Source: a virus (taxonomy: Duplodnaviria > Caudoviricetes). Taken from it: 64,000 bases of DNA. Where the stretch lies: the IMG/VR virus record IMGVR_UViG_3300037454_001182, positions 1-64,000 of that record, one strand, 5' to 3'. The notes beneath the pieces are model-generated. The model had not been told where the DNA came from. It ran no database searches and saw only the letters and a list, made by a program, of their open reading frames with translations. Each line of letters opens with the position of its first letter. The first letter of the stretch is position 1. The position numbers and the translations under genes were made by a program. This document shows, piece after piece, positions 3,862 through 62,285 of this stretch.

Positions 3862-5217
3862 TTATGTGAATTGATAACGTACCTTTCCTTGACCAAAGAA
3901 CTGCGGTGTGATGGTGGTGCCGAAAGGCAGCTTACCACTCTTTCGCAACTCATTGAGCCAGAACTTCTGTTCTGAATCATTTGTGAGATACTTGCACATA
4001 GTACCATCGTCTTTCTGGAACTGCACCACATAACGAGGGCCGTTCTGAGTAGGCACGTCTGGCTCAAAGTCAATGATTGTAATGTGAGTGTTTACGAGTG
4101 CGCGAAGATTCTCTGGATTTCCCTGTAAGATACGCTTTCCATCCTTACCTGTGAAGTTCACGCCCTCTGCTTGCTTTTGTTTCTTTAGTTCTGCAAATGA
4201 ATCCATGTTTTTACCAGTTAATTTCTTGTATAAGTGTTTTGCATCGCACCATTTAGCCATGCCTTTAAGACTGCCGATTATCTCCTGTCTGCGCTTGCGG
4301 CTCTTAATCTTAGCCAACTTACGAGCGGCTTTCTGCTTGGTTCTTTTCCTCAACCTCGCTTTCTTGCCATCGTACACATACCCCAGAAAGTCTATACCCT
4401 CCGAGATAGGCTTCACGCTTTCATTGGGTTTTATCTCCAGACCCACCTCGGCCACCTTTTCATGGATGATGTCGCGGATAATCCACAACTTTTCTTTCGT
4501 TGAGGCCAGTATCACCATATCATCGCAATAGCGGTAGTAATACTTTATACCCAACTCATCCTTGATGTAGTGGTCGAGGAAACTAAGGATGATATTGCCG
4601 TAGCACTGTGACGAGCGCAATCCGATAGACAAGCCCTTTGGCATCATGGTCACGAAATCATGGAGCATTGGCAGTAATATGGGGTCTTTGATGTAACTCT
4701 GTACCACACCCCACATCACATTCTGGTCTATGCTCTCAAAGAACTTGCGAATGTCACACTTGTAAAAGTATGCCGTACCCTCGCGGTCATTCTCGATGTC
4801 GTGTCTCATCTTCGCAAACAGCTTGTGCATGCCCCTACCAGGTATGCTTGCAGCCGATGTACGGATAACACTTGGGTAAATCTTATCTTCAACCACTCGC
4901 ATGATGGCATTGCAACCGATTCTGTCAGTCACACATGGGCTTTGAACGGTTCTCACCTTTGGCCCATCCTTGACTTCCATTTCCCGATAGCCTTTCACCC
5001 TAAACGTGCCATCTGCAATCTCCTTAGTCAGTCTGGCGATTACCTCTTCCCTGTGACTGCGATAGGTGGTGCGTCTGCCGGACAACACCGTTTTCTTTCC
5101 CTTGTGGGTAAAGGTACGCGGATTGTCTGGCAGTTGGTCAACCACCTCATCAAACGCCCTATCCATGTTAGCACGTTCAACAATCTTTGGAATCAGATAA
5201 CCGTATCTCTTTGGCAT
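3862..5217 (-). CDS. DGR reverse transcriptase with a fused C-terminal domain of about 114 aa
   Basis: KCDIRKFF, GLSIGLRSSQ (DGR-type IGxxxSQ), YRYCDD and IDFLGY motifs; adjacent TR/VR pair. Confidence 0.95.
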   Translation of the reverse strand: MPKRYGYLIPKIVERANMDRAFDEVVDQLPDNPRTFTHKGKKTVLSGRRTTYRSHREEVIARLTKEIADGTFRVKGYREMEVKDGPKVRTVQSPCVTDRIGCNAIMRVVEDKIYPSVIRTSAASIPGRGMHKLFAKMRHDIENDREGTAYFYKCDIRKFFESIDQNVMWGVVQSYIKDPILLPMLHDFVTMMPKGLSIGLRSSQCYGNIILSFLDHYIKDELGIKYYYRYCDDMVILASTKEKLWIIRDIIHEKVAEVGLEIKPNESVKPISEGIDFLGYVYDGKKARLRKRTKQKAARKLAKIKSRKRRQEIIGSLKGMAKWCDAKHLYKKLTGKNMDSFAELKKQKQAEGVNFTGKDGKRILQGNPENLRALVNTHITIIDFEPDVPTQNGPRYVVQFQKDDGTMCKYLTNDSEQKFWLNELRKSGKLPFGTTITPQFFGQGKVRYQFT

Positions 5218-5440
5218 GATAAAATAAGTTTCTTCTTCGTTCGTGCGGTCATAGCACTTTCGAGCATAATGCCTACTTGCCCATCATCGACCGCACCCTG
5301 TGATGTTCTGGCTTTCCGTGTTTCCACGCTGTTGCCAAGGTTCCAATCCCTCGCTGACTGTCATTGACTATCCCGTAGTCATTCACCGTAGCAACGATTA
5401 AACTTCCAGTGATTTCTCACCGTGAAGCAGAGTTGATTTA
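5218..5440 (-). other. Structured spacer between TR and RT (part of the DGR template RNA)
   Basis: Non-coding; 8-bp stem gtgcggtc(5243-5250)/gaccgcac(5289-5296); hairpin tgacta-tcccg-tagtca (5365-5381). Confidence 0.6.
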
Positions 5441-12173: not shown

Positions 12174-13619
12174 TTATTCAATATCTTCTTCGATTACCTT
12201 GTAGTCGCAACCCTCGACCAACTCATCATTCGCAATCAGTTCATTCAACTCACTCATGGTCAAGACACATTCAGTCCTGTTGAACTCATTGATGGCGGCT
12301 TGGGCCTGTGTTCGGATAGATGCCAGTTCCTCATCACACTGTGCCTTGTATTCAGCAGTCTTGGTATTCACTGCATTGGTGATACCTGCAATGGCCTCAT
12401 TCGTGCGTTGTGTGCGTTGTTGTTCTGCTGTTTGTCTATCTGATTCATTGGATTGCCTTGTGCGTTCCTGGAGTGCCCTTGTGGCCTCTGCATCGTCACG
12501 TCTGGTTTCAGCAGCGACCCTCAGACGCTCACTTTCTGCCAGAACCTCATCATTGGAGATACGTTCTTGTTCGGCTCTCTGTCTGATTGCCTCATGTTGA
12601 ACGCGCTCATCCTCATTGGAGATTCGTCTGGTTTCTGCGGCTCTGCGCTGTGTCTCATTCGATGCTCTGTTTATCTCTTCATTTTGACGGTTTGTTTCAT
12701 TGCTCTTTCGTGTGCCTTCTGACTGCGACCTTTCTGTTTCAGCCTCAACACGCAAGGATTCTGCGTCTATGCGGCCTTGTTCTGCTTGCTGAACGCCTTC
12801 AACAAACTGGTTAGTCTGGCTCTCCCTACGGGCTTCTGCCTGTCGGTAGAGCGCGTTTCTCTCATCCTCACCTGATGCGGCTTGGCTGTCACGCTGTTGT
12901 TCATGGAGTTGGAATGCCTCTGCCCTGTTGGTCTCGGCTTGCTCTCTGGCAGTCTCAGCCTCTATGCGCAAGGCTTCCTGTCTCTGTCTCTCTTGCTCTT
13001 GGGCTACGCGGAAATCCTCTGCGTTACGTCTGCTGTTCTCATTCGCAACACGCCCTAACTCTGCCTGTTGGATTTCAGAGAGGTCATTGAACAACTGTTC
13101 CGTTCTCTGGAGGACGCGCTCTGCCGTTGCAACAGATTCCACGATAAGTTCCGTAGAGTGCAACACGGTATCAAAGCCACGCATCCACTGCTCTTCTGAA
13201 CCCTCATAGCCATAGTTTACGGCTATCTCATAGGCAGAAAGACCGTGGATTCCTGCATCTATGTTAGTGGATGCAAGCGGCAACTCTTCAACCTGCATGG
13301 ATGATGGTATCTCGGAACTCCTGGCCACAAGACGGAAAGCCTTAACGTAGTCAGTAGCGGTCTGATGCTCACCACCCAGATTCTCAAACACGGTAAGATG
13401 GTAGATGCCTGTCAACTCCTGCTCATTGGCCGGGAACGTCCAGACAATCACATTTCCCTCTGTACCGAAACGATCAATCTTTCTGACCTTATTCAGTGGG
13501 TCAGTCAGAAACAATGAGATTTTGCGACCGTCCAAGGTCACTGCCTCACCGTTAGTCAGAATAGGCCATCGGATTTGTATCTCATTGGCAATTCTGAAAG
13601 TCTTTAACTCTTCATTCAT
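12174..13619 (-). CDS. Baseplate/tail protein (BppU-like N-terminus plus long coiled coil)
   Basis: N-terminal GLSAYEIAV..GYEGSEEQW motif; E/R/Q/A-rich heptad region. Confidence 0.6.
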   Translation of the reverse strand: MNEELKTFRIANEIQIRWPILTNGEAVTLDGRKISLFLTDPLNKVRKIDRFGTEGNVIVWTFPANEQELTGIYHLTVFENLGGEHQTATDYVKAFRLVARSSEIPSSMQVEELPLASTNIDAGIHGLSAYEIAVNYGYEGSEEQWMRGFDTVLHSTELIVESVATAERVLQRTEQLFNDLSEIQQAELGRVANENSRRNAEDFRVAQEQERQRQEALRIEAETAREQAETNRAEAFQLHEQQRDSQAASGEDERNALYRQAEARRESQTNQFVEGVQQAEQGRIDAESLRVEAETERSQSEGTRKSNETNRQNEEINRASNETQRRAAETRRISNEDERVQHEAIRQRAEQERISNDEVLAESERLRVAAETRRDDAEATRALQERTRQSNESDRQTAEQQRTQRTNEAIAGITNAVNTKTAEYKAQCDEELASIRTQAQAAINEFNRTECVLTMSELNELIANDELVEGCDYKVIEEDIE

Positions 13620-29308: not shown

Positions 29309-29327
29309 CGGTTGTTCTTTTTAGTTG

Positions 29328-29399
29328 CTCTGGGTGCGAGGCTCGAACTCGCGACTTCCACTCTTTCAAGTGACGTTCTACCAACTGAACTAACCCAGA
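29328..29399 (-). tRNA. tRNA-like gene (Phe/GAA-like) with a non-canonical 6-nt anticodon loop and no encoded CCA
   Basis: Acceptor TCTGGGT/ACCCAGA; D arm GTTC-AGTTGGTA-GAAC; anticodon arm TCACT-TGAAAG-AGTGG; T arm GCGAG-TTCGAGC-CTCGC. Confidence 0.75.
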
Positions 29400-33489: not shown

Positions 33490-34239
33490 TTAGCCTTTGG
33501 CCAGTTCCTTGACCTCATCATCCGACATTACTTCTTCATCGTCCTTTTTGACCGTGCTGCCGGGCATCGCACCTGCTGGCTTACTGAGGGTTTCCAAACC
33601 CTTATCCAGACGGTCTTGATTCTCGGCTTCCAAATCGGCCTCAACCTCATCGAGGAAATCTTCAAAATCCTCTTCGGTCTTGAACGACATACGAGCGAAA
33701 GACTTCATCACGCGCTCACCGTACTTGCCAGTGTCTTTGACAATAGCCTCCAGACGTGCTTTGCGGCTATCGGCAGTCTTACCACTCTTCAATTCCTCAA
33801 CCTGCCCTTTGAGGCTGTTGATGGTCTCAGTCAGTGGAGAGAGAGCCTTGGCGAGTTGTGCAGCGAGGGAATCATCCTCACCCTTTCCACTCTTGCCTTT
33901 CTTTGAAGATGGACTCTTACGACCCTTTGGAGTGACTGGCTCATCGTCTTGGTCGTCATCATCGTCATCATCATCATCATCGTCAGCATCGAGCGAATCT
34001 TTGTACTGTTGGAAACGGCGGTCTGCGGCAGATTGAGCGAACTGTAACACGTCAATGGCGGCATTAACCTCTTCGTCAATGGCTTTTGTTACATCTTCGT
34101 CACTGGCATCATCTTCGAGGTCAAGTTTATCGGCAACTTTGGCGGCGATACCCTTAATCTCCTTACGGCTGAACCCGAGCGCCTTAATTTCCTTTCTCGT
34201 TTTCAGCACTTCCAGAACTTTTCTAAAATGTCTGTTCAT
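33490..34239 (-). CDS. Capsid scaffolding protein (putative)
   Basis: Acidic helical protein with a poly-Asp tract, upstream of the capsid genes. Confidence 0.65.
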   Translation of the reverse strand: MNRHFRKVLEVLKTRKEIKALGFSRKEIKGIAAKVADKLDLEDDASDEDVTKAIDEEVNAAIDVLQFAQSAADRRFQQYKDSLDADDDDDDDDDDDQDDEPVTPKGRKSPSSKKGKSGKGEDDSLAAQLAKALSPLTETINSLKGQVEELKSGKTADSRKARLEAIVKDTGKYGERVMKSFARMSFKTEEDFEDFLDEVEADLEAENQDRLDKGLETLSKPAGAMPGSTVKKDDEEVMSDDEVKELAKG

Positions 34240-34262
34240 TGTTTTACGGATTTTGGTTTGTT

Positions 34263-34369
34263 AAAAATGGTCTGCGAGTGTGATACAGGCAGACCATCAT
34301 CAGAACCACATCGTAAGAGCAATGTTTTAATCCGAACAGTTCTGTCACGTGCATCTTCACACGCTTTCG
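34263..34369 (-). ncRNA. Candidate sRNA / attenuator leader (sRNA-2) carrying CAUUGCUCUUA
   Basis: Promoter at 34374-34404; terminator-like stem atggtctgc(34267-34275)/gcagaccat(34289-34297) plus U5; seed at 34314-34324. Confidence 0.55.
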
Positions 34370-34373
34370 GTCG

Positions 34374-34406
34374 CAAAGGTACTCAAATTTATTTGAATAA
34401 CAAATA
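34374..34406 (-). promoter_or_regulatory. Late-type promoter (TTTG-N19-TACCTTTG) overlapping a 17-bp operator
   Basis: Bacteroidetes -33/-7 consensus; TATTTGAATAACAAATA at 34390-34406. Confidence 0.75.
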
Positions 34407-34490
34407 ATTTTGTGATTTTTTTGCTAAAAAGTGAGGGTATTCGACAACTTTTGCTGCCAAACACCCTCTGGATGCAATGAAAACAGATAT

Positions 34491-34689: not shown

Positions 34690-35175
34690 TTATAATTTAT
34701 AGAAGTCAATACCCTTTGCCAACAGTTGGCTCTTCAATTCGTCAAACTGGTGCTTATCTATACTGGTGAACAACAGACCCTCTTTTGTCTGGCCGTGAAA
34801 CTTCACATAGGATGGGAAATTCAACTGATTCACGGTCACTGCGTCCTGTTGGTAGAATACGAAATCATGGTCACGCTCAAACATCACCAAAGCCTCTGGA
34901 TGGGCTTGCTTGCTCTTGCAATACTCCCTCAGAATCCTCTCACGTTCTGCAACTCCGGCCATCGTACTGAAGAAAGCACTGACGAACATTCTCTTTACTT
35001 CTGCCTCATTTGCTTCTGGGTAGTCAGTCTTGACAATCAACTGACAATTACCTGCATAGTTTGACCAACTTATTTCAAAGTTATAGTAGGTGGCACCCTC
35101 CATAACTCGTTTGATGCTCTTGCAATCTTGCTCACAGAGATTGCCTAACTCGTTTCCCAAATAGACTTCAATCAT
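34690..35175 (-). CDS. Hypothetical protein with a degenerate MutS domain I-like C-terminus
   Basis: KQAHPEALVMFERDHDFVFYQQDA resembles MutS_I; AAGAGCA-ATG start. Confidence 0.5.
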   Translation of the reverse strand: MIEVYLGNELGNLCEQDCKSIKRVMEGATYYNFEISWSNYAGNCQLIVKTDYPEANEAEVKRMFVSAFFSTMAGVAERERILREYCKSKQAHPEALVMFERDHDFVFYQQDAVTVNQLNFPSYVKFHGQTKEGLLFTSIDKHQFDELKSQLLAKGIDFYKL

Positions 35176-35226
35176 TGCTCTTGATATTAGCGGAGGTGAG
35201 CGGTGAGGCCCACCTCCAGATGAATA

Positions 35227-35949
35227 CTATGCCATAATCTCGATGTCGATACTCTCAACCCTTGCAATCTGGGTGGCTCCCTCGCGGTCAAAGAGATACT
35301 TCTGGAATGCGTCTTTGATTCTCATCACGCTCACACAGCAATACTCTTCACCAACAGGGAAACCATCATGTGAGAGGTCGAAGTTACCAGGCTTCCTGTA
35401 CGACTTGATGCCGTTGGCGTTTGCGGTGGCTCTGGCATCGTTCCAACGCTCATAACCATCACCGTCATTCTTGACGAACATTCTGGTGTTGCGGATGGTA
35501 TGGAAATCACTCTCTTGCTTGAAGTACTCCCGAATCACACAGAACTTGTTGATGATGGAGTGTTCGCTGTCAATGAGCGACTGGATGTGTTCGCGGCTGA
35601 TGTGTCCAGTCTCAGCGGTCACATCAAAAGTGTACGGCTCTTCGGTGGCAGGTTCAGTCTCAGCCTCATCATTGGTAGGCTCTGGCTCATCAACAGGCTC
35701 ATTCTCTGGTTCTGGCTCGATGGCCTCTGGCTCGTTCACTGGTTCCAGATTCTCTTCCGGCTCGATGGCTACCGTGGCATTGGCCTTGGTGCGGTAGTAT
35801 GAGATAAGGGCGGTGAGGCTTCTCTTGCCCTTAACCTCTTCGTACTCCTTGAAGAGTTCAGCGTTAGCACTCAGAGCGGCCTCAAAGGTCATGCTCTCAA
35901 AGTTCACCTTAATCTGGTTCTTAATCTCGTTTACATCTAACTGTTTCAT
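35227..35949 (-). CDS. Hypothetical protein with an acidic EP-rich linker
   Basis: 240 aa; AAGAGCA-ATG start; own promoter. Confidence 0.65.
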   Translation of the reverse strand: MKQLDVNEIKNQIKVNFESMTFEAALSANAELFKEYEEVKGKRSLTALISYYRTKANATVAIEPEENLEPVNEPEAIEPEPENEPVDEPEPTNDEAETEPATEEPYTFDVTAETGHISREHIQSLIDSEHSIINKFCVIREYFKQESDFHTIRNTRMFVKNDGDGYERWNDARATANANGIKSYRKPGNFDLSHDGFPVGEEYCCVSVMRIKDAFQKYLFDREGATQIARVESIDIEIMA

Positions 35950-35990
35950 TGCTCTTAAATTTTAATTGTGAATAATGTTTTTTGTTTAAT

Positions 35991-36072
35991 TTCTATACTG
36001 CAAAGATAGCGTATTTTTCTGAATTATCAAAACGGAAACTCGTTTATTTTCAGCGACTTAACTCTGTTTAAC
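35991..36072 (-). promoter_or_regulatory. Early-type repeated promoter P1
   Basis: -7 TATCTTTG at 36001-36008, -33 TTTG, variant upstream box at 36058-36072. Confidence 0.75.
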
Positions 36073-36309
36073 GTCTTGGCGTTCTCTATATGAGCCTTTC
36101 TTTGTCTCGGCCTTGATTTCGCCATAACTCGCATTACTCTCCCAGACTTTCTCACCATCGTTTATCTCGGTGACGAAATATCCAGTATCACCCAGGAACC
36201 CGACTATTTTCAAAGTCCAGTAGTAGTGACCATGGGAATAAACATCGTAACTCTTGCCGATATAGGACTGCATGATGTTTCTCATTCTTGTGCTGATACC
36301 CTTTTTCAT
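36058..36309 (-). CDS. Hypothetical protein
   Basis: 83 aa; AAGAGCA-ATG start. Confidence 0.6.
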   Translation of the reverse strand: MKKGISTRMRNIMQSYIGKSYDVYSHGHYYWTLKIVGFLGDTGYFVTEINDGEKVWESNASYGEIKAETKKGSYRERQDVKQS

Positions 36310-36329
36310 TGCTCTTACTTGTTTGATGG

Positions 36330-36638
36330 TTACAACTCGATTTCCTCAAATCCGAAACTGTCACAGTAGTAGAACTTATCTTCCAGTTTGATGATGTCAG
36401 AGACGGAAAGGCTGTGACCCTTGAATCCCTCTGGCTTTCTACCGATATTGAACTGATGGAAGATTTGCTCCAGTGTAACATACACATCGTTGGCCTCTTC
36501 AATCTCACCCTCCCATACCTTTTCGTACAGGTCTTTGGTAATCTTCAATCCCAGATGCTCGACCATTTCAAGACTGGAAAACATGATGTAGCGAGAATTT
36601 TCTGCATCGTCTCTTACTTGTAAAATCTGATATTTCAT
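36330..36638 (-). CDS. YodL-like domain protein
   Basis: LEQIFHQFN...GFKGHSLSVSDII...YYCDSFGF. Confidence 0.75.
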   Translation of the reverse strand: MKYQILQVRDDAENSRYIMFSSLEMVEHLGLKITKDLYEKVWEGEIEEANDVYVTLEQIFHQFNIGRKPEGFKGHSLSVSDIIKLEDKFYYCDSFGFEEIEL

Positions 36639-36673
36639 TGCTCTTTTTATTTAATTGGTTATCTTTTATTATT

Positions 36674-39722: not shown

Positions 39723-39971
39723 TTAATTGATTTGGTTTGGAAATATATCACTTTTTGGTTGGAAGTGAATACAACTCTTTTGACTTAGTAGGACACAGAA
39801 TTTCTTGTTAGTGTAGTGAGGGCAACGGCCTAAAGTCGGCTTTCCTTCCAGACTGATTGTGTGGTGCGCTGTCTCATACTCACACAAGGCACAATCACGG
39901 CATTGGTGATTCCCCACCTCCTGTCTCTGCCTCTGGTTCTGGCTCGGTGTCTTGGTCGGCTTTCTTGACAT
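39723..39971 (-). CDS. Small Cys-rich protein
   Basis: CRDCALC...C...C pattern. Confidence 0.5.
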   Translation of the reverse strand: MSRKPTKTPSQNQRQRQEVGNHQCRDCALCEYETAHHTISLEGKPTLGRCPHYTNKKFCVLLSQKSCIHFQPKSDIFPNQIN

Positions 39972-41900: not shown

Positions 41901-42095
41901 TTATGCCCTCTGGAACTCTCTATGTCGCGCTAATTGGCTACGATAGCCCTCCATGCAACGCTTCATGTAACTTGTGGCTGCATACCTCGTTGGATTGGTC
42001 ATGTACGGCTCTGTCTTATACAGGTTGATTTCCCTGCGACACGTCCACATCTGCTGAATGAGCCATACTTCTGTTTGCGTCTTTTGTCGTTTCAT
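41901..42095 (-). CDS. Hypothetical protein (start revised to 42095)
   Basis: AAGAGCA-ATG lies at an in-frame internal Met of track ORF 41901..42143. Confidence 0.55.
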   Translation of the reverse strand: MKRQKTQTEVWLIQQMWTCRREINLYKTEPYMTNPTRYAATSYMKRCMEGYRSQLARHREFQRA

Positions 42096-42161
42096 TGCTC
42101 TTCGATTTAGATGTATCAAGATAGCCGATAATACGACCATCATAGAAAGAACGAATAGGTC

Positions 42162-42803
42162 TCATGCCCATAACTTCACGGCTGTATCGTAATTCTTCTG
42201 GGCTTCATTAACGGCTTTCTTGGCATAGGTCAGAGAGTAGGCATGTTCGCGCTCAATCTTACCCTCTTTCATGGCTTGATGGTATGCCTTGGCCTTTTCC
42301 AGAATCTCAGCGTAATACTGTATGCTCTCTGGCATTGACAGGTTGATGTCCTCAGTGTGACGTTCCCAACCCTCGGCCTTGTCACGGTAGGCTTCTGCCT
42401 TATCCATTTCAGCGGCCATCTTTCCAGTGTTGCGCCATGCGTCCTCAATGGCTTTGCGGTGTCTGCGCTCAGAATGATGTCCGACTTTGATAGGCTCTCC
42501 CAGAGAGAGGAAAGCTGCATCTTTGTTGGACTTGTCGAAATACTCACCTGCGCGTCTGTCTGCATTGGCGGCTGCTTGCTCGTACTTCTCGACTTTCCGT
42601 TTGGCTCTCTCCTGGCAGTTGTAGCCATCAGCCCGAACGATGGAGTAGTAGAAAAATCCACCACGTTCTGCCACGAGGTTGTAAACGATGTGTTCATTCT
42701 CTTTGCCGTACTTTGTAGTTACGGTGATGATTTCGCCTCTTTCGTGCCTCTCTTCGCATTTTGCTACAAATACGTTGGGGCAATACTTTTGATACGTGTT
42801 CAT
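42162..42803 (-). CDS. DUF3560 domain protein
   Basis: GEPIKVGHHSERRHRKAIE. Confidence 0.75.
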   Translation of the reverse strand: MNTYQKYCPNVFVAKCEERHERGEIITVTTKYGKENEHIVYNLVAERGGFFYYSIVRADGYNCQERAKRKVEKYEQAAANADRRAGEYFDKSNKDAAFLSLGEPIKVGHHSERRHRKAIEDAWRNTGKMAAEMDKAEAYRDKAEGWERHTEDINLSMPESIQYYAEILEKAKAYHQAMKEGKIEREHAYSLTYAKKAVNEAQKNYDTAVKLWA

Positions 42804-42826
42804 TGCTCTTACTTTTTATAGGGTTA

Positions 42827-43129
42827 CTACTTAATTGTCACTTTCACTGGTTGAACGTCCTCGATGATGTCATTTACCCATGTGATAGCCTTGATAGGCT
42901 CCAATGTCTCGCGGTAGTTCTCAGTATCATACTTGAACTCGATTTCATACAGGGTGCCCGGCTCTCCCTCAAAGAGTATCGACCAGTAGCCATCACTCCA
43001 ACACTCATTGCTGATTTCGTAGGCTTGATTCTTCTGGCTGTTGCTCAACTCGTTCAGACAGTCATTGATAATCGCTGTTCTCTTAACGGTCTCACCGTTA
43101 CTCTGGAACTGAATCTTAATCGTTTTCAT
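42827..43129 (-). CDS. Hypothetical acidic protein (start revised to 43129)
   Basis: AAGAGCA-ATG at an in-frame Met; promoter P3 lies inside the longer track ORF. Confidence 0.6.
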   Translation of the reverse strand: MKTIKIQFQSNGETVKRTAIINDCLNELSNSQKNQAYEISNECWSDGYWSILFEGEPGTLYEIEFKYDTENYRETLEPIKAITWVNDIIEDVQPVKVTIK

Positions 43130-43149
43130 TGCTCTTATTCTTAATTGAT

Positions 43150-44103: not shown

Positions 44104-44457
44104 TCATGCCTCCCCATATAAGCGGTTAATGAACTTTTCCAGATAGCACTCATCTTTCATTTCAGACAATGGCTTCGGATTGTGGCAGATGTCTCTCTCA
44201 ACACCGCAACCCCAACTATTCTTCAAGTTCTGGAGTTCGGTAAGGCTGAAATACCCATACTCACATTCTCCATACCCATTGACTACGATTCCAAAAGCCA
44301 GATTCTCTTTTAGGTCGGCTTCCAACACATACCAGGTATGCGCCCCACCAGTGAGGAAATACTTAACTACGCAAATGGCATTTTGCTTTTTGTCGCTCTG
44401 GGAGTACAGCGGAAATTTCGCTAACTCCTTTTCTACTTGTTTCGTGACTAATTTCAT
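44104..44457 (-). CDS. DUF2958-like protein
   Basis: KYFLTGGAHTWYVLE...EYGYFSLTEL...VERD. Confidence 0.7.
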   Translation of the reverse strand: MKLVTKQVEKELAKFPLYSQSDKKQNAICVVKYFLTGGAHTWYVLEADLKENLAFGIVVNGYGECEYGYFSLTELQNLKNSWGCGVERDICHNPKPLSEMKDECYLEKFINRLYGEA

Positions 44458-44479
44458 TGCTCTTACTGCTATGTGGTTA

Positions 44480-44764
44480 TTACTTTACTTCCAACTCATC
44501 CAGAGAGATTTCTTCAAAACTTCCTGGCCAGTTGTAGATGGGCGTTGTGTCAAATGCTCCATACTCTACTATCTCTAACTCATCGCCCTGTATCTCCCAG
44601 ATGTCACCATTCTCATTACCATCACTATCCTCATACATGATGGCAATGTTAGTGAAATTGGCAGTCTCTTCAACATAGAGACCTGTGAACTCTAAACCAT
44701 TTTCTTTGAGGTTGGCAATCAGTTCCTCGACCTTTGCTTTCAGTTGTGCTGTAATTGATTTCAT
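44480..44764 (-). CDS. Acidic hypothetical protein
   Basis: 94 aa; AAGAGCA-ATG start. Confidence 0.6.
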   Translation of the reverse strand: MKSITAQLKAKVEELIANLKENGLEFTGLYVEETANFTNIAIMYEDSDGNENGDIWEIQGDELEIVEYGAFDTTPIYNWPGSFEEISLDELEVK

Positions 44765-44800
44765 TGCTCTTGAATTTTGAAAGTTATTATCTTTATTATT

Positions 44801-45277: not shown

Positions 45278-45555
45278 AACTGCTTTTTATATGGGTCATA
45301 AACTTCTTCAGTATGGGTAAACTCATACGGCTCACCGTCAATTCTCAACACTATTGCGCCATGTTCCAGAGCGGCCTCAACCGTATCAAATGGATAATCA
45401 CAACCATCAACATGACAATTATACTTATCCTCATACCATCTACCGGGACAATCAATCTGGAATGCTATGCGTTCCACTATCTTTCTGCCAGACTTGTACT
45501 GCGTTGTAATCCAGATGTGGTTATCTACAACTGGATGAACAATATATGTCTTCAT
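45274..45555 (-). CDS. Hypothetical protein
   Basis: 93 aa, tightly packed. Confidence 0.55.
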   Translation of the reverse strand: MKTYIVHPVVDNHIWITTQYKSGRKIVERIAFQIDCPGRWYEDKYNCHVDGCDYPFDTVEAALEHGAIVLRIDGEPYEFTHTEEVYDPYKKQL

Positions 45556-45557
45556 AT

Positions 45558-46076
45558 CTAAAACGATGGGTCAATGTAATGTCTGCGGAAACCGACTGTC
45601 AGTGTCACACTACCGAACTTCTTAGGTTGGCCCTCTTCAACCCATTTGCCATTCTTGCGCAAGGTGAACGTGTGCTTTCCCATATACTCGGCAATGGAAT
45701 CCAGAACCTTGTAACGGCCACCGTAGTAGTCTAAACATTCAGTCTCATTTTCCTGTACTATGATTTTCTTTGGACTTACAACCTCTACGATGGTCATAGC
45801 CCTGTGGTCACTCCAGAGGTTCATTGTGGCACCGAGGCCGACTTTCAATTCTGGATTGGATTCAGCAAACACCTCGGCTGCAACCTCCGGCCAATCTTCA
45901 CGCTTCCATCTGGTCAGAAACTCATTCATAAAGTAGTCGAAGTCATAGCCATTCAACTTGCACACATCGGCATCATGGCGCATTTCTTCCAACTGGCTTT
46001 CTGTCAGTTCAATGGTGTAGGCTTTGCCATCCCACATCTTTGTTTTGGTCTTTACAACCGTTTCTTTTGTTTCCAT
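45558..46076 (-). CDS. Hypothetical protein
   Basis: 172 aa; AAGAGCA-ATG start. Confidence 0.6.
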   Translation of the reverse strand: METKETVVKTKTKMWDGKAYTIELTESQLEEMRHDADVCKLNGYDFDYFMNEFLTRWKREDWPEVAAEVFAESNPELKVGLGATMNLWSDHRAMTIVEVVSPKKIIVQENETECLDYYGGRYKVLDSIAEYMGKHTFTLRKNGKWVEEGQPKKFGSVTLTVGFRRHYIDPSF

Positions 46077-46087
46077 TGCTCTTTGAT

Positions 46088-46423: not shown

Positions 46424-46690
46424 TTAGAGTGAATCAATATATAAGTTCTTAACCTCTCCACTGGCAATCATTGAGGCAACTTTCTCATTGATTGCGTCCA
46501 GTCCGATGATGTCCTGGCTGTCATGCTGCTCAACCTTGATAAGATGAAACTGCCTGTCTGATTTCAGCAACTCAATCACGCATTCACCGTTGACGGTCTC
46601 AATGACTATCTGCTGCTTCCAAGGGTCATACTGGTAAGCCATCTTATCGTACTTCTTTTGAAGTGACTTTGTTTCTTTTGTCTGTCTCAT
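46424..46690 (-). CDS. Hypothetical protein
   Basis: 88 aa; AAGAGCA-ATG start; first gene after P5. Confidence 0.6.
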   Translation of the reverse strand: MRQTKETKSLQKKYDKMAYQYDPWKQQIVIETVNGECVIELLKSDRQFHLIKVEQHDSQDIIGLDAINEKVASMIASGEVKNLYIDSL

Positions 46691-46707
46691 TGCTCTTATA
46701 GTTTGAA

Positions 46708-46790
46708 TTTCTATACTGCAAAGATAGCGATTTTTTCTGAATTATCAAAACGGAAAACTCTTTATTTTCGCCTTGCCAACTCTTTTTAAC
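46708..46790 (-). promoter_or_regulatory. Early-type repeated promoter P5
   Basis: -7 box at 46719-46726; upstream box at 46776-46790. Confidence 0.75.
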
Positions 46791-46794
46791 CAAT

Positions 46795-46866
46795 AAAAAA
46801 GGTGTGTCCTAACTTCACAGTCGAGACACACTAAGAGCAATGAAATCGTCAAAAGAAACGATTTCG
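46795..46866 (-). ncRNA. Candidate antisense sRNA (sRNA-1), about 70 nt
   Basis: -7 TAATTTTG at 46871-46878; 8-bp hairpin 46842-46865; single-stranded AUUGCUCUUA; terminator hairpin 46802-46831 with a GUGA loop and U6. Confidence 0.65.
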
Positions 46867-46908
46867 GCTGCAAAATTACAAAATAATATTCAAACCATCT
46901 AATTTTTG

Positions 46909-48420
46909 CTACAAAATATCTTTCTCAATATCTTCATCGTCTGAAAAATCGTAGTCACGCGGATAGAACGTGTTGGCCAACGCATCGAATTTGTCTGGTG
47001 AACGCTTCAACCGCTTCTTTATATCATCCTTGCTCTCCATGATGATACTACCGTTACTCTGGAACTTCCAGTGTATTTCTGTGGCTTCCTCAATCAAGCC
47101 ATCGTCTGGAGGCAGTGCCGGATTAAAGCCGTTCTTTGGATTTAGCCAGTCACGGACTGCCCAGAACAGGTAAGCCCTCATGTTGGCAAAGGTGTACTGC
47201 TCTGTGATGTCGGACAGCCCTTTCGTACCCTCAGAGAACTTGCACGAATAGGCATTGGAATACTCCAACTCTTCCAGTCTGGAATAGACACCTGCACCCT
47301 CTCCGATGGTGTCAATGAAAGCCTTTGCGTCTGGGTCTGCAAGATAGGGCGTAGTCATTCCGACAACGTGCATGTGGTCGGCCTTTCCACCAGACTGATG
47401 CACCTTGATTTCTGGAACCCATGAGCCATAGCGAGGCAGCAGAATACTATTGTCACGACCCATACCTGCGACATCGACACCGAGACGGACGGACTTCTTT
47501 GTAGTGAATCCAGATTCTTTCAACTCGTACCACCGTCTGTTTGCCAGTTCCACCCACTCGTAAGGTATGAGTATATCTTCTGCGGCTTTCGGGAACATGC
47601 CCAACACCTTGACCCTAAACAGGTCATTCGGACGGTACATCTTGCCCTCCCAGAAGAAATCACCCTGCCCCTCATCAAACTCTTCCGGCCTAATCGGTGT
47701 GGCCCAATTCTCCACCTTATCCTTGACCCACTCATAATCGACCTGCCCAGGAATGACATTACGCTTCTTTACCACATTCTCAGCATTGAGCGAGTTTAGT
47801 CTGAACTTGTTGAATCGGCCAGACTTCATAGCCTTGGCCGCATATCCAGTTGTGATGTTCGGGTTAAAGACGATCAACAACCGCGAATTACCCTGCAAGT
47901 TACCCTCAATGGCATTGAACGTGTTTTCAGAGATACCCGATGCCTCGGTGACAATAAACATGGTATTGACTGCATGGAATCCAGACCACGCCTCGGTGTT
48001 ATCCTCGGAACTCTTGAATCCTGTCAAGTACCACTCATCATAATTGGTACGGATGCCGTTAGAAAGCAAACGACCGGGCAGGAACTTTGCAGTACGGAAC
48101 AGACGCGCCACCTCTGGAATCATAATGTCCTTTACCTGTCTGCCAGTGGGTGCGGTCATTGCTATCTTGGTATTGCCTACGAGGTTGCCATCCTTGAATC
48201 TGGGTGTGAGATACATAAAACACATCGCAGCGCAAGCGGCCACATAGTCCTTTCCTCTGGCAGTACCAGAGGCTACGGCTGTCATGGGATTGTGCTGCAC
48301 CGAAGAAAGTATTGCCTGTTGCTCTTTGTCGAGATTGGCACGCAATACGTCTCTGGCAAACAGATTCCAGTCGGCTTGCCATTTCTTCAGTTGGTGCTGT
48401 GCTTTTCTGTTGTCTATCAT
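46909..48420 (-). CDS. terL: Terminase large subunit
   Basis: VASGTARGKD Walker A, VTEASG Walker B, LGVDVAGMGRD and RSPDKFDALA nuclease motifs. Confidence 0.92.
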   Translation of the reverse strand: MIDNRKAQHQLKKWQADWNLFARDVLRANLDKEQQAILSSVQHNPMTAVASGTARGKDYVAACAAMCFMYLTPRFKDGNLVGNTKIAMTAPTGRQVKDIMIPEVARLFRTAKFLPGRLLSNGIRTNYDEWYLTGFKSSEDNTEAWSGFHAVNTMFIVTEASGISENTFNAIEGNLQGNSRLLIVFNPNITTGYAAKAMKSGRFNKFRLNSLNAENVVKKRNVIPGQVDYEWVKDKVENWATPIRPEEFDEGQGDFFWEGKMYRPNDLFRVKVLGMFPKAAEDILIPYEWVELANRRWYELKESGFTTKKSVRLGVDVAGMGRDNSILLPRYGSWVPEIKVHQSGGKADHMHVVGMTTPYLADPDAKAFIDTIGEGAGVYSRLEELEYSNAYSCKFSEGTKGLSDITEQYTFANMRAYLFWAVRDWLNPKNGFNPALPPDDGLIEEATEIHWKFQSNGSIIMESKDDIKKRLKRSPDKFDALANTFYPRDYDFSDDEDIEKDIL

Positions 48421-49558: not shown

Positions 49559-50095
49559 CTATTGAAAGAAATCATCAAAGAGGCCCAACTGTCGCGGCTT
49601 CAACGCCTCGAACTCTTCTCTGAAGAACTGGTCTTTGGTGCGCCCCATCATCTTACCCTTGCGAGTGTGAACATCGTAGGTGTATTCTGGAATGGGAATC
49701 GGGTACCGTCTGGCATCTTCGAGCCATGCGTCCACATTCTCCAGTCGGTTCTGGTCATAGACAAGATTCTGCAAGTGGTCTGCATCACGGCTTTTGCGAC
49801 ACTCACACAGGAGCAGAACGGCCTTACTGACGAACACCCTGCCTTTCGGCACAGGTTGTTTCTTGTTTACTAACTCATGGCCCTGCCATAACGCCTCAAT
49901 CTCTTGGGTGATGAGGCCGTAGCAGTCTTCCGCGCTTATCGTGTATAGTCTCTTCCAGACATAATCACGGTAGCCTGAATGCCATAATTCCAGGGCGAAA
50001 TACCCTGCTGTTCGTGCGTCTGCTCTACGAATGGCCTTTTGCATGGCTGATGATACTTCGTAGAAATCGTAACCTTTAACTGTTCTTAATTCCAT
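49559..50095 (-). CDS. MgsA/RarA C-terminal-like protein without the AAA domain
   Basis: SAMQKAIRRAD...WKRLYTISAEDC; AAGAGCA-ATG start. Confidence 0.7.
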   Translation of the reverse strand: MELRTVKGYDFYEVSSAMQKAIRRADARTAGYFALELWHSGYRDYVWKRLYTISAEDCYGLITQEIEALWQGHELVNKKQPVPKGRVFVSKAVLLLCECRKSRDADHLQNLVYDQNRLENVDAWLEDARRYPIPIPEYTYDVHTRKGKMMGRTKDQFFREEFEALKPRQLGLFDDFFQ

Positions 50096-50190
50096 TGCTC
50101 TTACTTTTGGTTTTGTTATTCTTGTTTTCTAACAGTAAAGTTAGTCATTTTTAGCGAGATATGCAAATTTTCAAACTTCTTTTTCATCGT

Positions 50191-54659: not shown

Positions 54660-55079
54660 TCACAAACTATTTATCAGTTGGTCGATTCTCTCTTTAACAT
54701 AAGGCAGCTTCCAGTACCCATCTTCACCGAATATCTGAGCCTCGGAAAACTCATGGGTGTCTGGTTTGTATTCCAGACCGATGAAGCCACCATCTGGGAA
54801 ACGAATATCAATGCGAGGATTCTCAAAGCGCACTCGCAACTCTATCTTTGGCCGCGGCTTGCTTTCATCCACATCATCCTCAAAGATAGGGTATGAGTAG
54901 CGGACACTCTCAAAGGTTGGTACTTCGTTGGTTCTGAGGTATCTCTTGGCTGCACAGAACGATGTACCCCAAAACTTGTCTTTGGTCAAATCCTCTGTGC
55001 GATGGTCTGTCTCGATATAGCCGAACTTCTGGGCTATCTCTTCTGCGACCTTTAATAATGCTTGATTGACGATTTTCAT
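54660..55079 (-). CDS. Hypothetical protein
   Basis: 139 aa; AAGAGCA-ATG start. Confidence 0.6.
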   Translation of the reverse strand: MKIVNQALLKVAEEIAQKFGYIETDHRTEDLTKDKFWGTSFCAAKRYLRTNEVPTFESVRYSYPIFEDDVDESKPRPKIELRVRFENPRIDIRFPDGGFIGLEYKPDTHEFSEAQIFGEDGYWKLPYVKERIDQLINSL

Positions 55080-55092
55080 TGCTCTTTTGTAT

Positions 55093-55329
55093 TTAGTCGA
55101 AATGCTTGTTTATATACTCGTTAAACTCGGAATCAGTCAGCGACCTTAACACCCTGTCTGGCACAAAGCCGTATAACTGTTCGTCTATGATTCTGGCTCT
55201 TTCGTCTGTGTATTCAACGTGCCTATTCAGTAACGCTGCTTCCAGAGACATACCGCCAAACTCAACTGCACCTGCAACATTGTGAATGCCTGTGCGCGTC
55301 TGGAACTCTTGGCCTCGGTACTGTATCAT
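55093..55329 (-). CDS. Hypothetical protein
   Basis: 78 aa; ATGA-coupled to the upstream gene. Confidence 0.55.
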   Translation of the reverse strand: MIQYRGQEFQTRTGIHNVAGAVEFGGMSLEAALLNRHVEYTDERARIIDEQLYGFVPDRVLRSLTDSEFNEYINKHFD

Positions 55330-55661
55330 ATCTCACGCTCTTCTATCATTTCCAACAACTCATTGATTCCAGCCTCATCAAACTCATCTAACAGATGCTC
55401 TTCGGATGGGTCATTGGGATTCCAACGGTTGGACGTGATGTTTACTTTGCTCTTTTCTGGCTCCAACAAATCAAAGGTGATGGATTCCACAAAAGGCTGA
55501 TACTCTTCGGCCTCATCAACCAGTTCTGGATGAACAAAGGCGATGCCGTGGGTGTTCTCTGGATAGAACCACATACTGATGGAGCGAGAGAACCACACTC
55601 CAGTAGAACTACCGTATCTCTGTACGGCTTTCTTGAATCGTTCTTTTTGCTCTTGTTTCAT
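55326..55661 (-). CDS. Hypothetical protein (start revised to 55661)
   Basis: AAGAGCA-ATG at an in-frame Met. Confidence 0.6.
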   Translation of the reverse strand: MKQEQKERFKKAVQRYGSSTGVWFSRSISMWFYPENTHGIAFVHPELVDEAEEYQPFVESITFDLLEPEKSKVNITSNRWNPNDPSEEHLLDEFDEAGINELLEMIEEREI

Positions 55662-55709
55662 TGCTCTTTGGTATTTGGTGGGGTGGTGGTTAGCCACCCC
55701 GTGACCTTG

Positions 55710-56120
55710 TTATGCTGCTTTCAGATACTTGCGGATTTCCCAGAGCATCGTACTCATGCGCTTGTAGAGGTAGTAGTTAGCACGGCTATTGTACTCTTTC
55801 AGTTTCAGCCCGGCTTCCTCAATGGTCTGTTCCTCTCTCTGGGTGAGTGCGGTGTGAACCAGTGTACGCTCTTTCCAGTCGAAGTCTTTCCAACCGTACT
55901 TCTCGATGATGTGCCAAAGTTTCTCGCGCATCTTCTCTTGCTTCTCTCTGGCCTTGGCTTGTTCTTTGGCTTCCTTTACCCTGGAATGATTCATCTTGAC
56001 CCAGAGAGCGCAAAACTCATCTTTGCAAAGGTCGCTGTTCATGTAAACAACTTCGATGTGAGAATACTCTTCTGGGGTAACTCTCATTCCTACTCTCGTT
56101 TCAAATTCTGACTGTATCAT
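55710..56120 (-). CDS. Hypothetical protein
   Basis: 136 aa; AAGAGCA-ATG start; first gene after P6. Confidence 0.65.
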   Translation of the reverse strand: MIQSEFETRVGMRVTPEEYSHIEVVYMNSDLCKDEFCALWVKMNHSRVKEAKEQAKAREKQEKMREKLWHIIEKYGWKDFDWKERTLVHTALTQREEQTIEEAGLKLKEYNSRANYYLYKRMSTMLWEIRKYLKAA

Positions 56121-56155
56121 TGCTCTTTGATTTTAATTGTTATTATTTCATCTTT

Positions 56156-60337: not shown

Positions 60338-60922
60338 CTACTCGCAGAAAATGAAGTCCATATATTCAGCAAGGAACTGTTGGCCCGCGTACTCCGCTAA
60401 CGCTCTATTTTTGAAGCAGAGGCGACCGCCGCCGTACGTGCTCGAGAACGACGAAGCGTTACTCGTGAGCGACAAAGCGACACCCGCATTCGCACTCGCG
60501 CTGTTGTACGAGCGACCGAGAACGCGGATTCCCTTTTTGTCCTCTTCATCCATACCGTCCAGTTCCTCCTGTGTGTAGAACACGAACCAAGGGAAATAGC
60601 GGTATTCATCCTCAGTAAAATTCGGCTTCCATCCCTCATTGAGAGCTTCAACAATAGTCTTTAGTTTGATGTAGGCCACCTCATCCTTTTCGAGAAAACA
60701 ACGGCTGTTGTCAATCGGTGAAGAATAGCGCAGGTCGTGGAAGTTTACAGGCTGAATACCGAGGACTTTGCAAGCATCCTCATACGTCTTTACCCTCTCT
60801 GTGATAGGCAGCAGGGAATCCAGACCATCAACCTGTACGTCATGCTTACGCATGAGTTCCATCATTTCTTTTGCAAACACTTGTGCCTTATCATCTGGCA
60901 CGATCAGTTTTAACTCTTTCAT
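60338..60922 (-). CDS. Small early-region protein, DGR target 2
   Basis: 194 aa; contains VR2 (RVLGRSYNSASANAGVALSLTSNASSFSSTYGGGRLC) near the C-terminus. Confidence 0.85.
   Translation of the reverse strand: MKELKLIVPDDKAQVFAKEMMELMRKHDVQVDGLDSLLPITERVKTYEDACKVLGIQPVNFHDLRYSSPIDNSRCFLEKDEVAYIKLKTIVEALNEGWKPNFTEDEYRYFPWFVFYTQEELDGMDEEDKKGIRVLGRSYNSASANAGVALSLTSNASSFSSTYGGGRLCFKNRALAEYAGQQFLAEYMDFIFCE
60416..60527 (-). repeat. DGR variable region VR2
   Basis: 16 mismatches to TR over 112 nt, 15 of them at TR adenines. Confidence 0.92.
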
Positions 60923-60969
60923 TGCTCTATGAGTATTTAATATACGCAGGGCGGTTACTCCTGCAAATC

Positions 60970-61221
60970 CTATAAATCAATATCAAAGCCCATATCAGAC
61001 AGGGCAAGGATAACGGCTACTGGCAATTCATAGATACCATCGTAATCTATCACAGTGTTGCCATCAGTGACATAGTTTCCACAAACGTAGGTATCATCGT
61101 CATTGTCTTTCTCCCATTCCCAACTGTGGGAACTCGGAGTGATTGCTACCCACACATCATCATCATCAAAATAGAAGTGATGGATGCCGTCATTATCAAC
61201 GTTTCTTCTGGTGATATTCAT
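60970..61221 (-). CDS. Acidic hypothetical protein
   Basis: 83 aa; AAGAGCA-ATG start. Confidence 0.6.
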   Translation of the reverse strand: MNITRRNVDNDGIHHFYFDDDDVWVAITPSSHSWEWEKDNDDDTYVCGNYVTDGNTVIDYDGIYELPVAVILALSDMGFDIDL

Positions 61222-61233
61222 TGCTCTTATATT

Positions 61234-61467
61234 TTATAGTTCTACTGGTATGGATTTGCCTGTTAACCTTTCAAGTGCGACTAAGACATTCCATCCCAAA
61301 TTTGTCTGTATTTGCTGCATCTTTTCGTGATGCTCCATTGCCTTATTACGGTAGGTTTCACTCTCTTGCCTTTTGGCAAAGTAGTAGTTGAAACTCTTAA
61401 CGTGGTCGATGTATTCATCAAGAACTTCTTGATTTACATTTACTGTCACAATTACTGGAAAACTCAT
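61234..61467 (-). CDS. Hypothetical protein
   Basis: 77 aa; AAGAGCA-ATG start. Confidence 0.6.
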   Translation of the reverse strand: MSFPVIVTVNVNQEVLDEYIDHVKSFNYYFAKRQESETYRNKAMEHHEKMQQIQTNLGWNVLVALERLTGKSIPVEL

Positions 61468-61479
61468 TGCTCTTTGGTT

Positions 61480-61875: not shown

Positions 61876-62268
61876 TTATTGTTCATTCATTCTTGCTTGC
61901 CCATACTCTCTACTCCATTGCTTTGTGACTTTCTCGCGGTCAATTCCAGTGAGTGCCTGGCTGAAACGCTCAGTGATGAAAGCACCGTAAAGAATGGTAT
62001 TCTTATTCAACTTCATGCCGTTAGGGCAAAGACCGTTGGCATATCTACCATATTGCATATAGATGTTACGGTCAGCAGATGGAATGTAGTTTACTCTCTG
62101 ACCATCCTTTTTCATTGCCACTTCCCAATGGGAGCCGGTATAGGTCTTACTGCTCATCCAGTTATCTTGCGTATAACTGTCAGATTCAGATACGAGCCTT
62201 GCGACAATCTCATAATGTCCGCAATCGCTCTGCAAGTAGATGTACCTTGTTTTGATATTCGATTTCAT
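61876..62268 (-). CDS. Hypothetical protein
   Basis: 130 aa; AAGAGCA-ATG start; first gene after P7. Confidence 0.6.
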   Translation of the reverse strand: MKSNIKTRYIYLQSDCGHYEIVARLVSESDSYTQDNWMSSKTYTGSHWEVAMKKDGQRVNYIPSADRNIYMQYGRYANGLCPNGMKLNKNTILYGAFITERFSQALTGIDREKVTKQWSREYGQARMNEQ

Positions 62269-62285
62269 TGCTCTTATAGTTTGAA

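Follow-up and report, generated by a model that had tools for sequence, protein, structure and literature searches.

A conserved RNA element downstream of terL in a provirus with Bacteroidota-type promoters is complementary to a start-codon tag of about two dozen non-structural genes

What is the function of the structured element that follows the gene of the large terminase subunit (terL) in the phage record IMGVR_UViG_3300037454_001182, and why are its exposed bases the complement of a motif that lies on the start codons of many genes of the same phage? The stretch studied here, called the window, comprises the first 64 kb of this 79,203-bp provirus record, which is rated complete in IMG/VR. 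An earlier note on the window had proposed that the element is a small RNA (sRNA) with its own promoter and a hairpin-seed-terminator layout, the seed of which is antisense to the start codons of 19 early genes. The comparative analysis described below suggests that a conserved structured RNA of about 75 nt, here called sRNA-2, probably turns down the translation of about two dozen non-structural genes together, all of them carrying the same sequence, the tag, at the start site. A second RNA displaying the complement of the tag (the anti-tag), sRNA-1, is found in the leader of the head operon. To judge from the promoter type alone, the host would belong to the phylum Bacteroidota; the exact TerL sequence occurs only in metagenome runs.

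The RNA element downstream of terL

sRNA-2 is located on the - strand behind an epimerase-terS-terL block, in which the genes for a nucleotide-sugar epimerase and the small terminase subunit are the upstream neighbours of terL. All parts of the element listed in the earlier note (the -7 box, both hairpins, the linker, the GUGA loop and the T6 run) were found again at their positions on the - strand:

46909-48420 (-): TerL gene, product resembling annotated large terminases
46878-46871 (-): -7 box TAATTTTG of sRNA-2, a TAnnTTTG box in the same place in at least 23 variants
46865-46842 (-): hairpin 1, stem of 8-9 bp with conserved GAAA/UUUC base and covarying upper stem
46829-46845 (-): seed region, complementary to the start tag
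46845-46832 (-): conserved 14 nt UUUCAUUGCUCUUA, exact complement of the target logo (see below)
46844-46833 (-): invariant 12 nt TTCATTGCTCTT, the only long invariant block of the alignment
46842-46832 (-): linker CATTGCTCTTA, unpaired in the fold
46831-46802 (-): hairpin 2, the terminator stem, covarying and with invariant GUGA loop
46831-46825 (-): 5′ arm of hairpin 2, which lengthens the pairing with the best targets
46800-46795 (-): U6 tail (T6) of the intrinsic terminator, a T-run in all variants

Folding of the 74 nt gives -27.3 kcal/mol, with z = -5.8 relative to shuffled sequences, and the linker stays single-stranded. There is no terminator between the terL stop codon and the element; therefore the stretch 46870-46795 (-) should form the 3′ end of the terminase transcript, in addition to being, as proposed here, an sRNA gene with its own Bacteroidota-type promoter and intrinsic terminator.

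Relatives were collected by TerL searches of IMG/VR. The TerL of the window yielded 80 loci at 73-89% identity, and a second TerL query gave a further clade of about 55 loci; the clade of the window itself is 71-74% identical to that query. The anti-tag stands about 55 nt past the terL stop in 77 of the 80 loci of the first set and in nearly all of the second, and the element is retained after terL in about 131 related IMG/VR phage contigs (TerL 71-89% identical). The 23 distinct variants of the first set, together with extra sequences from a pattern scan, share a layout of TAnnTTTG box, hairpin 1, seed, GUGA-capped hairpin 2 and T-run. Alignment of 29 sequences (mean column identity 69%) revealed 12 consecutive invariant columns, which correspond to TTCATTGCTCTT, and an invariant GTGA loop. 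Independent drift of the linker beside a retained start motif was looked for in these relatives and the opposite was found, since the linker is what stays constant across at least 23 variants. The seed is unpaired in nearly all minimum-energy folds of the variants.

A covariance model was built from the variants and the 23 distinct sequences were realigned to it. Standard pairs occupy 92.4% of the cells, as compared to 43-49% with the partners slid, and compensatory changes are present in 11 of the 18 pairs. The covariation score is 0.39, against 0.04-0.10 with slid partners, and none of 500 shuffles reaches the observed value. Fitting the alignment to the model favours pairing; the same compensations are visible directly in the raw sequences. 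The upper-stem pairs of hairpin 1 alternate between AU, GC and UA and between CG, UA and GC, with a G-U pair in the L039 group of loci, while in hairpin 2 seven of ten pairs are compensatory, 95.6% of the cells are paired, and UG and GU pairs are conserved. Two positions are mostly G-U across the sequences. Because such conserved G-U pairs become A-C mismatches if read on the opposite strand, the RNA is assigned to the terL-sense strand. At the sequence level the element has the marks of a transcription unit of its own, with TAnnTTTG box, hairpin and U-run conserved in all variants. The layout originally put forward, an sRNA with its own promoter, is thus a conserved one with covariation in both hairpins, and we consider it very probable that sRNA-2 is a real, conserved sRNA gene.

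The promoter elements follow the TAnnTTTG / TTTG consensus of Bacteroidota as given in PMC7366714. In most relatives a TTTG is found 18-20 nt upstream of the -7 box (the -33 element), and in many of them sRNA-2 uses the same TACCTTTG box as the promoter shared by sRNA-1 and the head operon.

Rfam searches gave no family at either anti-tag locus (46700-46950 and 34200-34450), even at E values up to 10. The C4 antisense RNA (RF01695) was not matched in the window at its gathering score, nor at E up to 10 at the two loci, and there was no covariance-model match to IsrB (RF01386) in the window or at the anti-tag loci. Among isolated phages, blastn with the terL region retrieved nothing and tblastn only terminases of less than 32% identity. 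A search of 151 sampled Bacteroidales genomes with the covariance model of sRNA-2, in which only 32 candidates per genome were scored, gave no match, and literature searches found no published description of the RNA or the tag. In a genome collection of 596 Gb the combination of seed and GUGA loop was too unspecific: the matches listed were chance ones in unrelated phyla and carry no information on the host.

The start-codon tag and its match to the RNA

The motif AAGAGCAATG, which is the complement of the linker, is present in 21 copies in the window where 0.25 are expected, and none of 100 shuffles reaches 21. Nineteen copies are on the gene (-) strand, 18 of them on the ATG of open reading frames (ORFs) of 64-240 amino acids. 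The two reverse copies are both non-coding, one at the post-terL locus and one in the head-operon leader. Counted over the entire contig, 24 copies of the 9-mer fall on the gene strand and two on the opposite one. As a correction to the earlier note, the site at 12695-12707 is no gene start. The 20 AGAGCAATG sites of the window pair with the RNA over at least 10 nt in every case and over at least 11 nt in 19 cases; the reported pairing lengths of 14-15 nt at six sites and 17 nt at 62260-62276 were reproduced. Four further tagged starts lie on the same contig outside the window. The tag is private to the phage, with 14 copies of the 12-mer in 79 kb as compared to 223 copies in 201 Bacteroidales genomes (about 1.1 per genome). 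The sites in the window are:

62260-62276 (-): tagged start, 17 nt complementary, gene 61876-62268
61464-61474 (-): tagged start, gene 61234-61467
61217-61229 (-): tagged start, gene 60970-61221
60917-60928 (-): tagged start (9-mer variant), gene 60338-60922
56117-56127 (-): tagged start, gene 55710-56120
55656-55668 (-): tagged start, gene 55326-55661
55074-55086 (-): tagged start, gene 54660-55079
50093-50103 (-): tagged start, gene 49559-50095, first gene upstream of the epimerase-terS-terL block
46687-46698 (-): tagged start, gene 46424-46690 just downstream of sRNA-2, with its own promoter cassette at 46749-46719
46074-46083 (-): tagged start, gene 45558-46076
44757-44771 (-): tagged start, 15 nt, gene 44480-44764
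44451-44465 (-): tagged start, 15 nt, gene 44104-44457
43124-43137 (-): tagged start, 14 nt, gene 42827-43129
42799-42811 (-): tagged start, gene 42162-42803 (DUF3560)
42090-42102 (-): tagged start, gene 41901-42095
36632-36645 (-): tagged start, 14 nt, gene 36330-36638
36304-36317 (-): tagged start, 14 nt, gene 36058-36309
35944-35957 (-): tagged start, 14 nt, gene 35227-35949
35172-35182 (-): tagged start, gene 34690-35175
12695-12707 (-): tag copy within a tail-region gene, out of frame, of uncertain status

Several lines of evidence connect the tag to the RNA. When 244 distinct tagged starts, gathered from all loci, are combined in a logo, the conserved positions are T(-8) A A G A G C A A U G A A A(+6). 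They match the 14 conserved nucleotides of the RNA as their exact complement, and on both partners conservation drops at the same borders. The A residues at +4 and +5 are specific to the tag, with frequencies of 0.89 as compared to 0.39 and 0.33 in untagged ORFs. Calculated duplex energies are bimodal, with -16 to -22.7 kcal/mol for the tagged starts and -14.5 kcal/mol or weaker for the other starts (about 90). The only seed variant found, a C-to-U change in L337 (11560-11600), keeps the pair with the tag as G-U.

RNA and tag also occur together. Tagged starts were found in all 136 RNA-bearing loci (about 131 contigs), with a median of 2.3 per 10 kb, whereas the four TerL-relative loci lacking the RNA have no or one tagged start. 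Two of these, L075 and L077, have lost the promoter and hairpin 1 and carry a drifted seed; the other two (L079 and L366) have a plain terminator or nothing where the RNA would stand. The joint loss in four relatives agrees with the proposal of an sRNA matched to a shared start tag. As a separate observation, L079, with a TerL 74% identical to that of the window and neither RNA nor tag, uses starts of the Shine-Dalgarno-like kind throughout; phages of very different backgrounds apparently have the terminase module in common.

Covariation between seed and tag had been suggested as a check in related phages. Both are invariant, but the variable bases that flank the seed covary with the target flanks in most genomes. 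This was examined in ten complete relatives and the present phage, i.e. 11 genomes. Two of the targets outside the window pair over 16 and 21 contiguous nucleotides, and their leaders extend the pairing into the 5′ arm of hairpin 2, which varies among relatives. The clearest comparison is between this phage (G000) and G155:

G000 (this phage): RNA after the seed AGUGUGU; leaders of the AAA_24 ATPase and DEAD/ResIII helicase genes before the tag (A)CACACU
G155: RNA after the seed AGUGCUU; leaders of the orthologous ATPase and helicase genes AAGCACU, also in a third target

Two positions have changed on both partners, in front of two orthologous genes located 22-27 kb from the RNA. Genomes with UAUGU(G/A)C after the seed have ACAUA-type target leaders, and further single compensations are found among G152, G153 and G161. 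When the pairing past the common footprint is summed, a genome's own RNA is the best or second best partner in seven of the 11 genomes, a count uncorrected for relatedness. We regard the flank covariation, as seen in these sequences, as good but not conclusive evidence for pairing in vivo. That the RNA does pair with the tag is likely in our view.

The tagged set consists of small ORFans and of several larger non-structural genes, among them those of the AAA_24 ATPase, the helicase, a Dam-type methyltransferase and DUF6633 and DUF3560 proteins. Portal, MuF, scaffold and major head genes, the terminase subunits and all tail genes are untagged. Of the former description as early genes the non-structural character stands, and the timing that the word implies is presumed. 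At least seven copies of a promoter cassette of about 60 nt are present, and behind each of them come a short leader and a tagged start. Because only seven tagged genes follow the cassette and the remaining ones are operon-internal, the tag is a property of the start site and not of the promoter. A second promoter class, with a palindrome across the -33 region, serves sRNA-1 and the head operon, the portal gene and one unit outside the window; the promoter of sRNA-2 does not have this palindrome. The positions are:

62327-62297, 56193-56163, 46749-46719, 44837-44807, 43190-43160, 36710-36680 and 36031-36001 (-): promoter cassette copies
34404-34374 and 41822-41793 of the window, 67081-67051 of the contig: palindrome promoters

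Bacteroidota are thought not to rely on Shine-Dalgarno pairing. Strong GGAGG-type Shine-Dalgarno sequences are nevertheless present at several untagged gene starts on the - strand (58404, 58193, 52174, 60326, 60051 and 39047), and the phage may have three classes of start sites: tagged, Shine-Dalgarno-like and plain A-rich.

The second anti-tag RNA, the proposed role and its alternatives

The other reverse copy of the tag is situated upstream of the ATG of the scaffold gene (34239), which as the first gene of the head operon is itself untagged:

34263-34404 (-): sRNA-1, with promoter, 5′ hairpin, middle hairpin displaying the anti-tag, and terminator with T5
34404-34374 (-): sRNA-1 promoter TTTG-N19-TACCTTTG, a consensus promoter
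34324-34314 (-): sRNA-1 anti-tag, non-coding, in a leader of about 115 nt

The anti-tag is followed by a GC-rich hairpin with T5. sRNA-1 is kept in relatives as three hairpins, the middle one of which bears the invariant 9-nt anti-tag in its apical part; four compensatory pairs and G-U pairs support the structure. Since the covariance model of sRNA-2 does not detect it, sRNA-1 represents a second RNA class with the same seed. Each of the two anti-tags is thus part of a unit on the gene strand that runs from promoter to terminator. Two relatives have a third reverse copy of the tag, also conserved (G153 position 50123 and G159 position 45475, in gene-sense orientation), which looks like the tagged start of an opposite-strand gene and not like an RNA seed. 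The GUGA loop of hairpin 2 of sRNA-2 (46815-46821, -) and the UGAAG loop of hairpin 1 of sRNA-1 (34350-34356, -) are each invariant among relatives, and these UGA-containing loops could be a shared contact for a protein or a tertiary interaction.

From these data we infer a transcript, its repressive action and its timing as follows. The single-stranded, invariant UUUCAUUGCUCUUA would pair in trans across the start codons of the about 24 mRNAs that carry the tag UAAGAGCAAUGAAA. The duplex would occlude the initiation region and thereby lower translation, and perhaps trigger decay. The longest duplexes, of 16-21 bp, are predicted for two genes of the replication module, those of the AAA_24 ATPase and the helicase, since there the pairing runs on into the 5′ arm of the terminator hairpin. 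sRNA-1, as a terminated head-operon leader, would present the same anti-tag in a hairpin loop. Translational repression is favoured because the pairing from -8 to +6 covers the start codon and the Bacteroides sRNA GibS represses in that manner (PMC7366714). The anti-tags are both on or beside late transcription units, for packaging and for the head. sRNA-1 shares the head-operon promoter, the palindrome of which recurs at the portal promoter, and sRNA-2 abuts the terminase operon. Because of this arrangement the likeliest role would be a late shut-down, in which the tagged non-structural genes are turned off in concert once late transcription rises.

Some points weigh against this reading. One RNA acting on about 24 mRNAs would require a high abundance, and part of the pairing (UUUC and the AGUGUGU extension) involves stems that must open. 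In the window, sRNA-2 has a good -7 box, but its TTTG is only 12 nt upstream and there is no properly spaced -33 element. Classical seed-tag covariation is impossible because neither seed nor tag varies. As to the flanks, in four genomes (G154, G156, G158 and G160) another RNA type fits the tags better than the genome's own, and the flank covariation is clade-structured and could in part stem from co-inherited modules.

If the anti-tag RNAs were made in the lysogen, they might, through the same pairing, confer immunity or superinfection exclusion in the manner of P1 c4 or P4 CI RNA: tagged genes for early functions and replication would be silenced both in the resident prophage and in relatives that enter the cell. 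The phage is considered temperate because of an integrase gene at 1-1242 and its provirus class in IMG/VR. This integrase is the sole gene outside the - strand, no divergent repressor module is seen in the gene layout of the window, and the sRNA-2 promoter, having no late-promoter palindrome, could be constitutive. Immunity determinants normally diversify, however, as in the c4 RNAs of P1 and P7, whereas more than 130 divergent phages have one and the same seed and tag, so that heteroimmunity would not arise; moreover, sRNA-1 shares its promoter with the head operon. An immunity function, the main variant of the proposed role, is rather unlikely, and a purely local function in cis is more doubtful still. 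In the latter case the element would be the terminator or 3′ untranslated region of terL, and in read-through RNA the anti-tag would fold back on the tagged start of the next gene and block its translation, the distant complementarity being a by-product of the shared tag. A tagged start is indeed located 145-400 nt downstream of the seed in 10 of the 11 complete genomes, the downstream tagged gene has its own promoter cassette in this phage, and terL and the element are not separated by a terminator. Still, this explanation does not account for the conserved promoter of the element itself, for the second anti-tag RNA ahead of an untagged gene, or for the covariation of the seed flanks with leaders 22-27 kb away.

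The tag might also be a site for a protein, either a translational regulator like RegA of phage T4, which is an example of a protein that recognises shared initiation regions, or a DNA-binding protein; the reverse copies would then be unrelated or serve another purpose and the RNA would not pair. The invariant GUGA loop and the similar UGAAG loop of sRNA-1 do suggest a protein contact. Binding of a protein to the tag would not extend to its complement, though, and a DNA site requires neither a fixed ATG register nor a 24:2 strand bias, while the matching footprints, the co-loss and the flank covariation point to RNA-RNA pairing, which makes a protein site improbable. Given pairing, it could activate or stabilise the tagged mRNAs, or these mRNAs could act as sponges for an RNA with host targets; the direction of regulation is not derivable from comparative data and activating sRNAs exist (PMC7366714). 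We give such schemes little credence because the duplex spans the start codon (-8 to +6), where ribosome binding is blocked in every known case, and the tag is rare in Bacteroidales genomes. Finally, the + strand copy of the tag at 46832-46842 contains an ATG with a perfect tag and opens a 20-codon ORF, which could be read as a small + strand gene of 20 amino acids. This ORF was rejected: its length varies from 1 to 101 amino acids in relatives, conservation ends with the residues that the stem base dictates, the substitutions preserve RNA pairing by compensation and are not synonymous, and the G-U pairs fit the - strand only; a gene here is almost certainly not what the conservation reflects. 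The complete proposal, in which sRNA-2 is a trans-acting repressor of the tagged starts tied to late transcription, has in our estimate a reasonable probability of being correct, if well short of certainty.

Relation to known systems and significance

The P4 CI RNA resembles c4 in that its exposed stretches pair in trans with mRNA of the phage itself and block expression. The c4 antisense RNA of P1/P7 is summarised in PMC12197685 as a structured phage sRNA that pairs at ribosome-binding regions of its own mRNA. These RNAs are closest to the anti-tag RNAs in mechanism, as phage-encoded structured sRNAs that direct an exposed stretch against repeated initiation-region sites. They differ in that c4 and P4 CI have two target sites in one operon, whereas here about 24 dispersed starts are involved and the tag is invariant in more than 130 phages. 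Furthermore, c4 and P4 CI arise by processing of the transcript that they target, act in immunity, where their specificity diverges, and belong to phages of another host phylum. Unlike C4, sRNA-2 follows terL and sRNA-1 resides in the leader of an operon with an untagged first gene, and the C4 family (RF01695) shows no similarity to the anti-tag RNAs in sequence or structure.

Regulation of the same logic is exerted by a protein in T4, where RegA recognises many early mRNAs by their initiation regions and silences them at a later stage of infection. RegA uses a loose consensus, whereas in the present case an RNA would use an exact tag. GibS of Bacteroides, described by Ryan et al. (2020), is similar with respect to host phylum (as deduced from the promoters), promoter type and a conserved single-stranded seed across start codons: its seed pairs across start codons without a Shine-Dalgarno sequence and represses (PMC7366714). 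GibS differs in being chromosomal, in having two metabolic targets and in its 5′-terminal, extended seed, and there is no homology.

The closest genomic pattern is found in the start-associated sequences (SAS) of Cluster K mycobacteriophages, reported by Pope et al. in 2011. They precede 10-19 non-structural genes of many unrelated families, are asymmetric and practically confined to the phages, and all point the same way except for one reverse copy that is not at a gene start; whether their partner is an RNA or a protein was left open by the authors (PMC3203893). Their function was still described as unknown in 2024 and 2025. Common to both systems are a conserved asymmetric start motif on unrelated non-structural genes, a single orientation and rare reverse copies. 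The SAS, however, is a 13-nt consensus with a Shine-Dalgarno core located 3-9 nt upstream of the start, whereas the present tag has another sequence and extends across the ATG. The SAS hosts are Actinobacteria and no RNA partner has been described, while the promoters here are of the Bacteroidota type, which makes the tag an analogue and not a member of the SAS group.

In the Cluster K Mycobacterium phage Anaya the reverse SAS copy is in a non-coding gap of 385 nt between gp96 and gp97, where it makes up the apical loop (10 nt) of a hairpin. This hairpin is common to 133 phages and shows six compensatory pairs as well as G-U pairs on the sense strand:

39795-39910 of locus L373 (59794-59909 of the record): Anaya anti-motif hairpin, annotated as hypothetical protein in some records

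This stretch may be an unannotated anti-motif RNA. In Amohnition the start motif is canonical and the hairpin loop has a 1-nt deletion; the loop is also a mimic of the anti-Shine-Dalgarno sequence. The analogy with Cluster K is only suggestive, a lead and not a result. It is conceivable, though we would not count on it, that phages in general have come by convergent evolution to combine private start tags with anti-tag RNAs as a means of switching whole gene sets in translation, and that the SAS work alike. In the present family the variable seed flanks would then also set a hierarchy in which replication genes are silenced first.

Two other RNA features of the window were noticed. The Rfam RT-3 RNA is matched at 5245-5399 (-) with 77 bits, where the gathering score is 40.5; the match immediately precedes the start of a 451-aa ORF (3862-5217, -). 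The tRNA-like gene at 29327-29399 (-) scores 51 bits with the Rfam tRNA model and is given a four-base anticodon (gaaa) by ARAGORN, with no amino acid assigned; it could be a frameshift-suppressor-type or a degenerate tRNA.

The antisense RNAs hitherto described in phages have one or two target sites each. Here one RNA, together with a second RNA with the same seed, is matched to a tag on about one-fifth of the genes of the phage, and the family is present in well over 100 gut-metagenome phage contigs. Tag and anti-tag are short, exact and portable and could serve as an orthogonal translational switch in Bacteroides. The anti-tag RNAs also offer a concrete candidate for the type of partner of start-associated motifs, the function of which has been open in mycobacteriophages since 2011. 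If the proposal is true, they would do with RNA what T4 RegA and other translational repressors do as proteins, in phages of a phylum without Shine-Dalgarno-led initiation or Hfq.

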